This document shows, piece after piece, positions 57,708 through 63,334 of a stretch of 64,000 bases of DNA. The position numbers were made by a program, and so were the translations under genes. Numbering within the stretch: the stretch's first letter is position 1; each line of letters opens with the position of its first letter. The notes under the pieces are model-generated. The model was given only the letters and a program-made list of their open reading frames with translations, was not told the origin of the DNA and ran no database searches. Source of the DNA: Treponemataceae bacterium (lineage in GTDB: Bacteria; Spirochaetota; Spirochaetia; Treponematales; Rectinemataceae); assembly GCA_963667725.2 (NCBI GenBank), contig CAXXHO010000003.1:2080001-2144000 (forward strand). Reading direction: 5' to 3'.

Positions 57708-58493
57708 CTACATCGATTTCCAGAAGCGGTAGAACTTGCGCTCCACCTCATCCAGGTTGAGCAGGGGATAGTATCTGTATTTGCCTTCGCCAGCGAACAT
57801 GAAGCCGTCCTTGAGCACCTTGTACGAGATTCTGTCGATGGGGCAGTCGAGGGATAAGCCCTTCACGAATTTCCCCGGCGTGGTCCGCACTTCCTGCACG
57901 GCGCTGTGGAGCCTGGCCGGATGAATCCCCGGAACAAAGCCCCTGATAAGCGGATTTTCCTCATAATCCCTCATGAAGTCCTCAGTGTTGAATTCCAGCT
58001 GGGCGAAGAACATCTTGGGCGCCCCCTTGGAATTGTGGGGATCGGTGATGAAGCGTCCGAATTCGCGAAAATCATATTTGGTGAGCACGATGAATTTGAC
58101 GGGATTGATCTCCAGCATGATGCGGAACTCTTCGGGATCGTTCTCGGGGTTGAATTCAGCGCTTTTCAGCTCGACGTAATCCCCCATCGAATTGCAGAGA
58201 TAGAGACTGCCGAGGGCATCGAAATCCAAGTGCTCGAGGACACGGTAGCTTTTGATGAACTTCGTGGCCTTGGGTCTTCCGTCCTCATGGGGGATTAGCT
58301 CGGCGTAAGCTCCGTCGATATCGAAATAAGCGTTCCTGAAAGCGGGATCGACTTCGACGAAAATGAGCCTTCCCTCGAAATAGCGCGTCGACCCCTGAAC
58401 ATAGTGCCGTATGAAATGCTCTGGATCCATCTGCGAGGCGATGAGGGAATGATTGGGATGCAGGATCAGGTATAGATGCTTGTCGTCGGACAT
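57708..58493 (-). CDS. Hypothetical protein (261 aa)
   Basis: GGAGG SD before ATG 58493; coding-like composition; no motif recognised. Confidence 0.8.
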   Translation of the reverse strand: MSDDKHLYLILHPNHSLIASQMDPEHFIRHYVQGSTRYFEGRLIFVEVDPAFRNAYFDIDGAYAELIPHEDGRPKATKFIKSYRVLEHLDFDALGSLYLCNSMGDYVELKSAEFNPENDPEEFRIMLEINPVKFIVLTKYDFREFGRFITDPHNSKGAPKMFFAQLEFNTEDFMRDYEENPLIRGFVPGIHPARLHSAVQEVRTTPGKFVKGLSLDCPIDRISYKVLKDGFMFAGEGKYRYYPLLNLDEVERKFYRFWKSM

Positions 58494-58562
58494 GTTTACC
58501 TCCAGATTACGTGCCATAAAGATCGCCGTCGGAGCTTTCCGGGAATTATTTCCGGAAATTTC

Positions 58563-58596
58563 CGCATAATCATTGCATAATACGTATAATTATTCA
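58563..58596. promoter_or_regulatory. Putative tandem ARG boxes (ArgR operator)
   Basis: CGCATAATCATTGC and CGTATAATTATTCA, 20 bp apart, resembling TGAATWWWWATTCA, just upstream of TTGACA at 58605. Confidence 0.55.
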
Positions 58597-58660
58597 CTAC
58601 CCAGTTGACATACTTTCTCATTTATATTTTATTACTTCTATTCCATTCTGGGAGGAGCAT

Positions 58661-58750
58661 ATGAAACGCTCTTATCCTGTCTACCTTCCAACACTTCTCA
58701 CTTTCGGGTTTGAGCCGCGCACACCGCGACTCTACTCCGTTCGTAGGTAA
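58661..58750 (+). CDS. Putative leader peptide of the arg operon (MKRSYPVYLPTLLTFGFEPRTPRLYSVRR)
   Basis: GGGAGGAG SD, ATG, 29 codons, ends CGT AGG TAA; lies between promoter and argC. Confidence 0.7.
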   Translation: MKRSYPVYLPTLLTFGFEPRTPRLYSVRR

Positions 58751-58882
58751 GGCGTCGACCGCCACCTCCCACAACCACAGACATTATTAGCTCGACCTTC
58801 ATTTTTTTGAGGGTTATTATCCATAGTGAAAGCCTGGGGGTATTGTTCCCTCGGGAGTTCAGCCCCATCCAGGAGGATTTGG

Positions 58883-59941
58883 ATGATTCAGATAGGCATT
58901 CTTGGCGCTTCCGGCTATGCCGGGGCGGAACTGGCCAGGATACTGCTCGCCCACCCGGAACCCAAGCAGCTCCACCTCTCCTCCGTCAGTTTCGAAGGCA
59001 AGGCGCTCAGTTCAGTGTATCCCTCTTTCAACAGTCCCGATCAAACGGGCTATGGCAATCCGCCGATGATGCTCGAAAGCGCCGAGACAGTGATTGAAGC
59101 CTCCGACATTCTCTTTTCCTGCCTGCCCCACGGCTTCGCCGAGTCAGCGGCCGAACGATGCCTGGCTAAAGGCGGACTTTTCATCGACATTTCGGCCGAC
59201 TTTCGTTTTGGCGATGACGAAGCCACCTATACAGCGTGGTACGGAAAGAGCTACGCGCGGCCGGAGCTCCACGCCAAGGCTGTCTACGGGCTGCCCGAAC
59301 TCAACAGGGAAAAAATCCGCAAGGCACGCCTCATAGGCAATCCCGGATGCTATCCCACCACGGCCGAACTCGGCCTCTATCCGGCGCTCTCGGCCGGGAT
59401 CGCGGACTCGGGCAGCATCATCATAGATTCGGCATCGGGCCTCACCGGGGCAGGCCGCGAACCTAGCCAGACGACGCACTATGTCGATTGCGTCGACGCG
59501 ATTTCTCCCTATAAGGTGGGCGCCCATCGGCATCAGCCCGAAATTGACCGTTATCTTTCGATTATGGCCGGCGAGGCGGTTTCCTCCGTCTTCACCCCCC
59601 ATCTGGCGCCCATGAACAGGGGCATCGTCAGCACGATCTATTTCAGCCTGAAAAAAGCCATGGACGCGAAGGGCCTGCGCGATCTCTACGCGTCGTTCTA
59701 CTCGAAGGAACCTTTCGTACGGGTGCTCGCCCTTGGCGCGACCGCCAGCAACAGGAACGTGAAACTCTCGAACTATTGCGACATTTCCGTCCATCTCTCC
59801 TCGAACGGCAGGACGGGAATCGTCGTTTCGACGATCGACAATATGGTGAAGGGCGCGGCTGGCCAAGCCGTGCAGAACATGAATCTCGCCCTCGGTTTCG
59901 AAGAGACCGCAGGGCTCAGGATGGTTCCTCCGGCTTTCTAG
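58883..59941 (+). CDS. argC: N-acetyl-gamma-glutamyl-phosphate reductase
   Basis: GASGYAG, CLPHG, DISADFR, YGLPE, NPGCYPT, HRHQPEI, DNMVKGAAGQAVQNMN. Confidence 0.97.
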   Translation: MIQIGILGASGYAGAELARILLAHPEPKQLHLSSVSFEGKALSSVYPSFNSPDQTGYGNPPMMLESAETVIEASDILFSCLPHGFAESAAERCLAKGGLFIDISADFRFGDDEATYTAWYGKSYARPELHAKAVYGLPELNREKIRKARLIGNPGCYPTTAELGLYPALSAGIADSGSIIIDSASGLTGAGREPSQTTHYVDCVDAISPYKVGAHRHQPEIDRYLSIMAGEAVSSVFTPHLAPMNRGIVSTIYFSLKKAMDAKGLRDLYASFYSKEPFVRVLALGATASNRNVKLSNYCDISVHLSSNGRTGIVVSTIDNMVKGAAGQAVQNMNLALGFEETAGLRMVPPAF

Positions 59942-60003
59942 GGCGGCGGAATTAAAATGATGTTTCTGCCGCGCCGGCGCGCGGCATAAAAGCGAGGTTG
60001 AGC

Positions 60004-61221
60004 ATGATACAAATTCGCGGCGGTGTTACCGCGGCTAAGGGTTTTACGGCATCCGGTGTCCATGTAGGCATCCGGAAAAACAAGGAAAAGAAAGATCTGG
60101 CTTTGGTCTGGTCTGAAAAGCCCTGCAGCGCCGCTGCGGCGTACACGACGAACCAGGTGAAGGGCCAGCCCCTCCTCGTCACGATGGAGCATCTCGCGGA
60201 CGGCAAGGCCCAGGCCATCATCGTCAATTCCGGCAACGCGAACACCTGCACCGGCGACGCGGGCATCGCCGCGGCGAAGCGGATGGCGGTCCTCGTGGCC
60301 GAACGCCTCCCTGTTTCGGCCAGCGACGTGGTTGTCGCCTCCACGGGCGTGATCGGCCAGCAGCTGGACGTGGGCATTATCGAAGCCGGAATGGAACAGC
60401 TGGTGGCGGGGCTTTCCAAGACAGGCAACATAGACGCGCGCGAAGCCATCATGACCACCGATACGGTTAAGAAGGAATTGGCCGTCCAGTTCGAGATCGG
60501 CGAGCAGACGGTGACGATAGGCGCCATGGCCAAGGGTTCGGGGATGATCCACCCCAACATGGCGACGATGCTTTCTTTCATAACGACGGACTGCGCCATC
60601 AGCCCGGCCATGCTCCAGAAAGCGATCTCCCTTTCCGTCACGAAGACTTACAACCGCGTAAGCGTGGACGGCGACACCTCGACCAATGACATGGTGGTCG
60701 TCCTGGCCAATGGAATGGCCGGCAACGCCTTCATCGAAACGGAAGGCGCCGATTACCGATCTTTCTACGAAGGCCTCAACTGGCTCAACACCCAGCTCGC
60801 GCGCATGATAGCCCGCGACGGCGAGGGCGCCACGAAGCTCATCGAGTGCACCATCGAGAGCGCCGCGGACGAAGCCAAGGCCGAAGAGCTCGCGAAGGGC
60901 GTCATCTGCTCCAGCCTCGTCAAGACGGCCATCTTCGGCGCCGACGCGAACTGGGGAAGAATTCTCTGCGCACTGGGCTATACGCGCAAGGATTTCGACC
61001 CCAACAAGGTAGACATCGCCTTCGAGAGCGCTTCGGGCTACATCGAGGTGTGCAAGAACGGCGCGCCCCTTCCCTTCAACGAGGAAAAGGCCAAGAAAAT
61101 CCTCAGCTACCAGGAAGTGACCATCTATGTCACGATGAATGAGGGCGAGGCGCAGGCCACGGCCTGGGGTTGCGACCTCACCTATGAATATGTGAGGATA
61201 AACGGAGACTACCGGACCTGA
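60004..61221 (+). CDS. argJ: Ornithine acetyltransferase / N-acetylglutamate synthase
   Basis: NSGNANTCTG, STGVIG, IMTTDT, KGSGMIHPNMATML, DGDTSTND, DGEGATK. Confidence 0.97.
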   Translation: MIQIRGGVTAAKGFTASGVHVGIRKNKEKKDLALVWSEKPCSAAAAYTTNQVKGQPLLVTMEHLADGKAQAIIVNSGNANTCTGDAGIAAAKRMAVLVAERLPVSASDVVVASTGVIGQQLDVGIIEAGMEQLVAGLSKTGNIDAREAIMTTDTVKKELAVQFEIGEQTVTIGAMAKGSGMIHPNMATMLSFITTDCAISPAMLQKAISLSVTKTYNRVSVDGDTSTNDMVVVLANGMAGNAFIETEGADYRSFYEGLNWLNTQLARMIARDGEGATKLIECTIESAADEAKAEELAKGVICSSLVKTAIFGADANWGRILCALGYTRKDFDPNKVDIAFESASGYIEVCKNGAPLPFNEEKAKKILSYQEVTIYVTMNEGEAQATAWGCDLTYEYVRINGDYRT

Positions 61222-61304
61222 TCCGGAATTAGCCGCAAGTCGGCTATTAACGGTCAGCGGGCAACAGTCAGCGAAAGAACACCCAGGAAAGGGGGAGTGC
61301 GTAT

Positions 61305-62168
61305 ATGATCAACGATAATGTCAGGGTCGATATTCTGATCCAGGCGATGCCCTATTTCAAATCCTTCGCGGGAAAGATTGTCGTCGTGAAGTATGGCGGC
61401 GCCGCGATGATCAACGAGGGCGTCCGCGCGGCCGTCCTCCAGGATCTCATCCTCATGCAGCAGGTCGGCATAAAGCCGGTGCTCGTCCACGGGGGCGGAC
61501 CGGAGATCGACCGCATGCTTAAGAAACTCGGCAAGGAAAGAGTCTTCATCGATGGAATCCGCTATACCGACGATGAAACCATGGAGATCGTCCAGATGGT
61601 CCTGGCCGGCAAGGTGAACAAGGACCTTGTTGCCCACATCGAGCGCCAGGGCGGCTCCGCGATAGGCATCTGCGGCGGCGACGGAGGGCTTTTCCGCGCT
61701 AATCGCCTGCAGAAGAACGGCGTGGACCTCGGCATGGTCGGCGAAATCTCCTCGGTGCGGCCGGACATCGTCCGCCACGCGCTGGACGCGGGGTACATCC
61801 CCGTCGTATCCACCATCGCGCTCAGGCCGAACGACGAAACCGGCTACTACAACATCAACGCCGACACGGCCGCCGCCGAACTCGCCGGCGCCCTCGGCGC
61901 CGAAAAACTCATTCTTCTCACCGACGTGCCCGGCCTCCTGAAGGACGTGGCCGACATGGCCACCCTCATCTCCGTGCTCAAGCGCGAGGACGTTCCCGCC
62001 CTCATAGCGCAGAAGATAGTATCAGGCGGCATGATTCCCAAGGTGGAATGCTGCGTGCAGGCTCTTTCACTGGGTGTCAAAACGACACATATTCTGGACG
62101 GCCGGTCGCCGCACTCGCTCCTCATCGAGCTCTTCAGCGACAGAGGCATGGGGACGATGATCGTATGA
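61305..62168 (+). CDS. argB: Acetylglutamate kinase
   Basis: VVKYGGAAM, VHGGGPEI, NINADTAA, LTDVPG, GGMIPKV. Confidence 0.97.
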   Translation: MINDNVRVDILIQAMPYFKSFAGKIVVVKYGGAAMINEGVRAAVLQDLILMQQVGIKPVLVHGGGPEIDRMLKKLGKERVFIDGIRYTDDETMEIVQMVLAGKVNKDLVAHIERQGGSAIGICGGDGGLFRANRLQKNGVDLGMVGEISSVRPDIVRHALDAGYIPVVSTIALRPNDETGYYNINADTAAAELAGALGAEKLILLTDVPGLLKDVADMATLISVLKREDVPALIAQKIVSGGMIPKVECCVQALSLGVKTTHILDGRSPHSLLIELFSDRGMGTMIV

Positions 62169-63334
62169 ACGACAAAACAATGAATACGTACAAGAGGACC
62201 GGCCTGGTCCTGGACCATGGAAAGGGCGCCACTCTCTATACGAATGATGGCGCCGAATACATCGATTTCACGGCGGGAATTGGCGTCAACTCGCTCGGGC
62301 ACGGGCATCCGAAGCTCGTGAAGGCAATAGCCGACCAGGCCGCCCGCCTCATCCACGTATCGAACTATTTCATGACCGACGTTTCCACGCGCCTGTCCGA
62401 AAGACTGGCCGACATGGCCGGCATGGACAAAGTCTTCTTCTGCAACTCGGGCGCCGAGGCCAACGAAGGCCTCATCAAGATAGCGCGCAAATACGGATCG
62501 GCAAAAAACCCCGACAAGAACCTCATCGTCACGCTCAAAGGTTCTTTCCACGGCAGGACGGTCACCACCGTGACGGCCACGGGCCAGGACAAGTTCCATC
62601 AGTTCTTCGGTCCCTTCACGCCCGGTTTCATCTATGTCGAAGCGAACAACATAGCCGCGCTCGACGCCGCGCTAACCGAAAACGTCTGCGCCTTCCTTTT
62701 CGAGCCCATCCAGGGCGAAGGCGGCGTCAACCCACTCAATGCCGACTACCTGAAAGCCGCCGAGGCGCTCTGCGGGAAAAGGGATATCCTTTTCGTCGCC
62801 GATGAAGTGCAGACGGGCATAGGCAGAACGGGCGCCTTCCTGGCCTTCCAGAAAATGGGAATCCACCCCGACATGGTCGGCGTCGCGAAAGGGCTCGCGG
62901 GCGGCGTTCCCGTGGGAGCCGTGCTGGCCAAAGGGCCCAGCGCCGACGTGCTCCAGCCCGGCGATCACGGCACGACCTTCGGGGGAAACCCCCTGGCCGC
63001 AGCGGCCGCCAATGTCGTTCTCGATGAGCTTTCCGCGCCGGGATTCATGGCCGAAGTGGAAAGAAAAGGCGAAAAGATCAGGTCGACGGTGCGTTCCTGG
63101 AAGAACCCCCTTGTCAAGGAAGTGCGCGGCATGGGTCTCATGATTGGCATCGGCGTTTCGGTTCCCCCTGGGGATGTCGTCGCCGCCTGCCGCGCCGACA
63201 GACTCCTCATTCTCACCGCCGGCGACGACACGCTCAGGCTCCTGCCTCCCCTCGTCATCAGCGATGCCGAAATCGATCGCGGTCTCGAGATTCTCAAGGC
63301 GACGCTCGACGGGATGGCGAAGGCAAAAGCATGA
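62165..63334 (+). CDS. argD: Acetylornithine aminotransferase
   Basis: NSGAEANE, SFHGRT, EPIQGEGG, DEVQTGIGRTG, AKGLAGG, HGTTFGGNP. Confidence 0.95.
   Translation: MNDKTMNTYKRTGLVLDHGKGATLYTNDGAEYIDFTAGIGVNSLGHGHPKLVKAIADQAARLIHVSNYFMTDVSTRLSERLADMAGMDKVFFCNSGAEANEGLIKIARKYGSAKNPDKNLIVTLKGSFHGRTVTTVTATGQDKFHQFFGPFTPGFIYVEANNIAALDAALTENVCAFLFEPIQGEGGVNPLNADYLKAAEALCGKRDILFVADEVQTGIGRTGAFLAFQKMGIHPDMVGVAKGLAGGVPVGAVLAKGPSADVLQPGDHGTTFGGNPLAAAAANVVLDELSAPGFMAEVERKGEKIRSTVRSWKNPLVKEVRGMGLMIGIGVSVPPGDVVAACRADRLLILTAGDDTLRLLPPLVISDAEIDRGLEILKATLDGMAKAKA

Follow-up and report, generated by a model that had tools for sequence, protein, structure and literature searches.

A two-locus arginine leader system in front of argC and argG in a family of spirochaetes

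In one family of spirochaetes the arginine biosynthesis operons starting with argC and argG are preceded by short reading frames which end on arginine codons, predominantly CGT. This two-locus, family-wide leader system is real and would be a form of ribosome-mediated attenuation. That the frames are arginine-codon sensors, whatever the output step, is very probable. For the more specific proposal, judged from sequence comparison, that the argC leader senses charged tRNA-Arg and switches argCJBD on by excluding Rho during a stall at CGU, the chances appear evenly balanced.

Results and Discussion

Anatomy of the argC leader region

The window, i.e. the whole stretch of 64,000 nucleotides that was analysed, contains an argC-argJ-argB-argD operon on the plus strand (58883..63334, argC ATG at 58883), whose products match NCBIfam TIGR01850, TIGR00120, TIGR00761 and TIGR00707 above cut-off. 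All leader elements named below lie on the same strand. A promoter is predicted at 58605..58633, with TTGACA as -35 element, a weak or ambiguous -10 element and a probable transcription start at about 58634-58641. The TTGACA at 58605 is unvarying across 13 aligned relatives; a consensus promoter scan did not call the promoter at this position. The Shine-Dalgarno (SD) sequence GGGAGGAG (58650..58657), which is invariant within the close clade, leads a C/U-rich and G-poor reading frame of 29 codons (58661..58750; translation MKRSYPVYLPTLLTFGFEPRTPRLYSVRR*). Its five arginine codons are CGC, CGC, CGA, CGT and AGG, and its 3' end reads CGT AGG TAA (58742..58750), of which CGT-AGG are the predicted sensor codons. 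Of two C-rich tracts, the first (58669-58705) counts 15 C but a single G over its 37 nt; the second follows the leader stop (58759-58805) and contains 19 C against 4 G. An earlier note on this DNA had described the TTGACA, the strong SD, the 29-codon frame with five arginines in four codons and a terminal tandem, and both C-rich tracts, and all of this is found in the sequence. The composition of the 37-nt tract is not unique, as 113 such clusters occur genome-wide on both strands.

Immediately 3' of the leader stop a putative hairpin of 4 bp (58751..58763) is seen in the close clade only. Its pairs are invariant in all 16 aligned sequences, so that covariation is absent, and its loop varies. 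It is followed by a rut-like C/A-rich tract of about 30 nt (58764..58793), predicted to be unpaired in most loci of the close clade. Over 51 loci the composition from +10 to +35 after the stop is C 0.40, A 0.29 and G 0.14. Two hairpins without U-tail (58794-58815 and 58827-58861), candidate pause or release sites, precede the argC SD, AGGAGG, at 58871..58876. Their sequence varies among the genera while the stems recur, with z < -1.5 in 11 of the 15 genera with sufficient spacer.

The leader peptide has no match in Pfam or NCBIfam, and its exact sequence is absent from a collection of 15 billion proteins. No T-box or riboswitch match near any gathering score was obtained with Rfam for 57800-59300. 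The look of GFEPRT suggested a tRNA remnant at the leader, a candidate dropped after ARAGORN reported none. The stretch CGCTCTTA at codons 3-5 resembles a boxA, but it is variable in relatives. On the minus strand (57708-58517) a divergent protein of 261 aa is encoded upstream of mnmE-mnmG, which has 16 unnamed cluster members and is matched by neither Pfam nor NCBIfam. In a putative RNA run (X1) the contigs span argC-argD with the leader outside and are evidence neither way.

Conservation of the argC leader

The argC gene was located in 56 of 69 genomes of the family, and 54 loci were examined, the gene start being absent from two. Leaders were filtered as SD-led frames with arginine in the last two codons. 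The comparison of argC upstream regions proposed in the earlier note bore out the short SD-led frame with terminal arginine: an ATG-started frame of 29-47 codons, located 49-263 nt upstream of argC, is present at 50 of the 54 loci and in 17 of 18 genera. Applied to 78 argC loci from other lineages, the same filter passed a frame of any kind at 11, for the most part frames that do not start with ATG or the tails of upstream genes. Since the terminal arginine is part of the filter itself, the informative contrast is that between 50/54 in the family and 11/78 stray frames elsewhere. The one genome of family f2 also carries the leader, and so does Spirochaetaceae bacterium UBA1306 (L051), whose argC is 61% identical. 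Scans reaching 330-450 nt upstream from what appears to be the first gene did not find the leader at 77 of 90 argC loci from other Spirochaetia where the upstream side could be viewed (6 frames ending in RR are due to chance). Nor was it found at 70 such loci from other lineages or at 3 from other families in the order. In many other Spirochaetia (L192-L246) argR directly precedes argC in an argR-argC operon, unlike in the leader-bearing family.

The four argC loci without a typical leader belong to the sister genomes G014, G044 and G045 and to G006; all four genomes keep the argG leader described below. In G006 (L016) an atypical G-rich frame ending in …PRVRRNPWVGSR* lies 16 nt before argC and is possibly a degenerate leader.

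The leader peptides are unrelated among clades (MKRSYP…, MECSLL…, MKYQGR…, MSGFFD…). By clade, pN/pS of the leader frame is 0.85, 0.68, 0.55 and 0.38 (the last in g10), while the other frames give 1.01-2.19 with one exception of 0.55, and argC 0.10-0.24. Judged by these ratios, the peptide is under weak purifying selection within clades and loosely constrained. The length is constant at 29 codons in 17 loci with a saturated middle sequence, and is 30, 35-36, 38-39, 41 or 45-47 codons in other clades; this constancy may reflect the spacing of queued ribosomes.

The fixed length and the in-frame pN/pS below 1, together with a C-terminus that is often hydrophobic and then basic (Leu, Phe or Tyr before Arg), would fit a nascent-peptide arrest on free arginine, ornithine or citrulline, similar to TnaC, SpeFL or the fungal AAP. 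Such an arrest is nevertheless very improbable, as there is no common motif across clades or between the argC and argG leaders, selection acts on a specific codon, CGT, and not only on the residue, and arrest on excess arginine would have the wrong sign for a biosynthetic operon in a Rho-masking geometry. The earlier note had named PRTPR as a possible arresting chain. This motif already varies between members of the genus (L003 has PTTAR), and neighbouring genera have EMPAPR and AHESR, so that arrest through it is not supported, and nothing points to the ornithine sensing that was also suggested there.

A second leader at argG

In the source genome a second leader is located outside the window at C3:624830-624901, in front of argG-argH. 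It encodes MMFRFEYSSFLPQTRLEARLRRR, has no SD and is of a peptide type ending in …RLRRR. Its ATG lies 7 nt after the -10 element of a promoter with 17-bp spacing, which is the same spacing as for argG's own start in genus g20. Given this spacing and the missing SD the argG leader is probably leaderless. In genus g20 (L250, L254, L257, L258, L262, L266) argG itself is apparently leaderless, the distance from the promoter to its ATG being that found for the leader frame in g1.

Leaders were identified at 41 of the 51 argG loci examined in the family, in 15 of 18 genera; 37 of them result from a motif search requiring Leu-Arg codons and 4 were read by eye. In some genera they are SD-led, mostly with GTG starts, and in others apparently leaderless. 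They carry a near-invariant CTCC right before the arginine codons. The argG leader is missing in g4, g9, g20 and one g17 genome (10 of 51 loci), and it was not found at 27 argG loci of other families.

We also looked for such leaders irrespective of gene names. Among 1015 genes of the source genome with free upstream DNA, 42 upstream frames with terminal CGT were obtained, and when these are ranked by C minus G the argG leader is first and the argC leader second. Inspection by eye of the regions upstream of carA, two argF-like genes and argR in this genome revealed no typical leader. A motif search across the family gave 80 matches in 45 of 69 genomes. Of 40 examined matches away from known argC and argG sites, 36 loci lie within long reading frames according to the frame filter and one lacks a start, while two are additional argG-type leaders.

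These data bear on a non-regulatory explanation, in which the leader would be a constitutively translated spacer frame, or an RNA- or protein-binding motif with an incidental frame, and ArgR alone would control the operons. ARG-box-like sites and ArgR are indeed present, and the leader is dispensable in some lineages, being absent at 4/54 argC and 10/51 argG loci. The start, the frame and the terminal CGT are, however, kept at two unlinked arg operons, in SD-led and in apparently leaderless form, and the examined off-site matches fall nearly all into long reading frames, while two are argG-type leaders again. We regard this explanation as highly unlikely.

Choice of the terminal codon

In 48 of 51 argC leaders CGT occupies at least one of the two final positions. 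It accounts for 77 of 106 terminal arginine codons, but for 31 of the 178 that are internal to the leaders and for 45 of the 643 of argC. In the source genome it is the rarest arginine codon (6.9%; CGC 37.5%). C-richness alone would favour CGC. The codon after the key arginine varies and is Arg, Lys, Thr, Pro, Leu or stop. By these codon counts the selected feature is the specific codon CGT and not merely an arginine residue. The use of four different arginine codons, which the earlier note had listed as a feature, is incidental; the conserved element is the terminal CGT.

The source genome encodes tRNA-Arg with the anticodons GCG, UCG, CCG, UCU and CCU, one gene each, and none with ACG. CGU would thus be wobble-read by the single tRNA-Arg(GCG), which also serves CGC; E. 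coli employs another tRNA for CGU. According to selective-charging theory the tRNA reading CGC and CGU, i.e. tRNA-Arg(GCG), would be uncharged first in starvation.

Composition, RNA structure and output step

With weighting by genus, the C/G ratio lies at about 2-4 between positions -80 and +40 relative to the stop, with arginine and stop codons excepted. G at fourfold degenerate third positions is 0.17 in the leaders versus 0.32 in argC, and is lower in 17 of 18 genus-level groups. Around the stop C amounts to at least 1.5 times G in all 51 leaders of argC and in 28 of the 37 of argG, a level that 10.5% of upstream windows in the source genome reach. In the C versus G comparison the argC 5' region of the source genome is in the top 0.8% of 603 upstream regions; with windows of 78 nt it holds only rank 63 of 1015, and the 5' region of argG rank 155. 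No general C>G skew was seen downstream of stop codons in this genome, so that the use of C-rich sites by Rho is presumed for this lineage.

A conserved intrinsic terminator was not found: terminator-like sites occur at 3 of 51 argC loci, and none was seen in the consensus fold or in the leader scan. A classical attenuator of the trpL/hisL type was consequently rejected, for the leader frame with cognate codons is present but a conserved GC stem, U-tract and antiterminator are not. A U7 run considered as terminator tail turned out to be a hairpin loop confined to the genus of the source genome. A dedicated hairpin over the leader's own SD is predicted in several clades, but is no stronger than in composition shuffles (9 of 18 groups). 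The pairing predicted between the leader SD and the pyrimidine-rich 5' part of the frame does not exceed what the composition yields.

The same arginine stall could act on translation. A bare pyrimidine-rich leader frame would pair with the SD of argC or argG, stalled or queued ribosomes would free it, and any Rho effect would be secondary polarity. A precedent for this exists in Ms5788A (10.1101/834739, the available text). In the consensus fold 5 pyrimidines near codons 23-25 pair with the argC SD and the intervening hairpins bring both close; in L001 the unpairing of the SD rises from 0.20 to 0.53 if the entire frame is blocked; and the argG leaders contain CTCC before their arginine codons. 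In equilibrium folding the probability of pairing between SD and stall footprint is 0.56-0.88 in g7, g10, g13 and g20, but at most 0.1 in the clade of the source genome. Blocking the footprint lifts the mean accessibility of the SD just from 0.25 to 0.31, with a gain above 0.1 in 4 of 18 groups (in short windows 6/18 and 7/15). Swap tests revealed no co-evolution of footprint and SD (mean rank 0.46-0.61), cognate duplexes being not stronger than swapped ones, and none is as long and stable as Ms5788A needs. The post-stop tract is A-rich and hence a poor anti-SD. Altogether we consider a translational output rather unlikely.

The unpaired tract of fixed length and the recurrent hairpins without U-tails behind it would also be compatible with a control of mRNA stability, in which a ribosome halted on the leader would cover an entry point for nucleases in the C/A tract, or would stop exonucleolytic decay from the 5' end, with the hairpins protecting the processed mRNA. 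Nuclease sites are usually A/U-rich, whereas here the sequence is C-rich and G-poor over frame and spacer, and the downstream hairpins are mostly absent at argG (4/12 genera). This makes a stability effect improbable, even if pausing at arginine codons of speFL/orf34 is described to alter RNase G sensitivity (PMC6386406, in the part available).

ArgR and Rho

Just 5' of the -35 element an ARG-box-like palindrome is located at 58583..58596 (no strand assigned). It has 2 mismatches to an ARG-box core, is conserved in position in the 13 aligned relatives and is a putative ArgR site; sites with 2 mismatches to this core number 319 genome-wide. The source genome encodes argR, and ArgR is found in 63 of 69 family genomes. 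ArgR probably represses initiation in parallel with the leader. Neither the palindrome and the argR gene nor the argG leader appear in the earlier note. ARG-box-like palindromes were also noticed at C3:629189, upstream of carA, and at C3:2200399-2200538, where the downstream gene begins in the manner of a signal peptide and possibly encodes a transporter.

In the three sister genomes G014, G044 and G045 (L018, L143, L141; L295, L296, L294), whose completeness is 86-97%, neither a match to argR nor a leader at argC was found, but the leader at argG is retained. The absence of argR and of the argC leader is probably a single loss event.

Rho is encoded in the source genome and was found in 64 of 69 family genomes. 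The Rho protein of the source genome (L048, C3:848135-849376) has a long N-terminal extension of low complexity; its open frame comprises 617 aa, and most family members have 530-680 aa.

Proposed mechanism

In the reading we prefer, starvation stalling keeps Rho off the transcript. We infer translation, stalling, Rho action and the direction of the response from the arrangement of the elements. With plentiful arginine the ribosome would read the last codons, terminate and depart, and, according to the fold prediction, the C/U-rich 5' half of the frame would shut the SD of the leader itself. The frame and the post-stop tract, together about 130 nt of weakly folded RNA rich in C and poor in G, would then be exposed, Rho would load and would terminate transcription near the downstream hairpins or early in argC. 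If arginine is short, tRNA-Arg(GCG) as the reader of CGC and, by wobble, of CGU would lose its charge first. A ribosome would be held at the terminal CGU in the middle of the tract with others queued behind it, the free RNA would be too short for Rho, and the operon would be transcribed. The same device would operate at argG, with repression of initiation by ArgR alongside.

The stall site is only 0-2 codons away from the stop. The signal must therefore be the dwell time of the ribosome and not its position, which excludes the usual toggle between terminator and antiterminator. The C-rich, G-poor and weakly folded tract at the end of the frame the rho gene in the genome and the speFL-like geometry favour Rho, and as putative effector it is reached partly by elimination. 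Against it stand spacers down to 35-70 nt, which leave little room before the next SD, and the fact that a ribosome at Arg28 would leave the post-stop tract uncovered, as the tract starts about 20 nt further on. Of the interpretation given in the earlier note, the terminal-Arg leader stood up as conserved, in a setting of rut-like composition, no intrinsic terminator and a Rho protein, while the PRTPR arrest did not. The full proposal, an "arginine ribulon" in which leaders at argC and argG with a wobble-read CGU before the stop gate Rho without a terminator, an anti-SD helix or an arrest peptide, is tentative and has slightly less than an even chance of being correct.

Relation to known systems

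In tnaC a ribosome at the leader end masks a rut site; the arrest is peptide-dependent, caused by excess ligand, and the genes are catabolic. The leaders trpL, hisL, thrL and leuL resemble the arg leaders as sensors of charged tRNA before biosynthetic operons, in the case of trp with a comparable dual control by a repressor. The arg leaders differ from them in having no terminator/antiterminator pair or U-tract and in a stall site that abuts the stop.

The poly-Cys leaders of mycobacteria were first supposed to be Rho-dependent (PMC1262725), and one of them was proved to be translational (10.1101/834739), as the accessible parts of both papers state. With Ms5788A and the "Cys ribulon" (10.1101/834739; predicted in PMC1262725) the arg leaders share, according to the same parts, cognate codons at the stop, the lack of an intrinsic terminator, a pyrimidine-rich spacer, leaderless starts and the occurrence at several loci of one pathway. 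Ms5788A acts on translation (10.1101/834739, as far as available). Unlike what is described for it there, the arg leaders use 1-3 arginine codons with the rare CGU, no long conserved SD duplex was found, and an ArgR layer exists.

The speFL/orf34 leader is similar, in the available descriptions (10.1101/604074; PMC6386406), in that a ribosome held at the leader end masks a rut site, in a hairpin at the 3' end and in rare arginine codons, and ribosome dwell time is the signal in the speFL model (10.1101/604074). Its arrest is described there as peptide-dependent and induced by excess ligand, with catabolic genes, a conserved peptide and internal R12-R13, whereas in the arg leaders the peptide is variable, the arginine codons are terminal and the genes biosynthetic. 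Salmonella mgtL (PMC6386406, partial text) is alike in that full translation of the leader favours Rho termination and stalling at cognate codons prevents it. It is unlike the arg leaders in its proline codons, its role in Mg transport and its structured riboswitch context (PMC6386406, same text).

For E. coli, the available text of PMC6345581 describes control of arginine biosynthesis by a transcription-factor repressor and no attenuation. E. coli argL (10.1101/511675) is likewise a small frame at the 5' end of an arg gene. It differs by overlapping argF out of frame and dampening its translation, and the accessible part of that paper (10.1101/511675) reports no sensing by terminal arginine codons. 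The parts of PMC8632094 and PMC4997734 that are available contain nothing equivalent to the arg leaders. A search of full-text literature, with subscription papers and supplements outside its scope, found no description of them. Comparative attenuator predictions in the subscription literature, among them work of the Lyubetsky group from about 2010, might mention them.

Significance

Terminator-less leaders escape annotation as well as attenuator searches that are based on terminators. The strict choice of CGU provides a clean natural test of isoacceptor-selective charging where tRNA-Arg(ICG) is absent. In the three sister genomes in which argR was not found, the argG leader may be the sole recognisable control of argG. 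If Rho is the effector, its gating by starvation stalling at a biosynthetic operon would be a rarity. The "arginine ribulon", if true, would carry the logic of tnaC/speFL over to biosynthesis and codon starvation, and it would be the first instance in spirochaetes of arginine biosynthesis being controlled at the RNA level. The conserved terminator-less leader at two loci suggests that sensing of arginine by ribosomes has arisen in spirochaetes and can be superimposed on ArgR.
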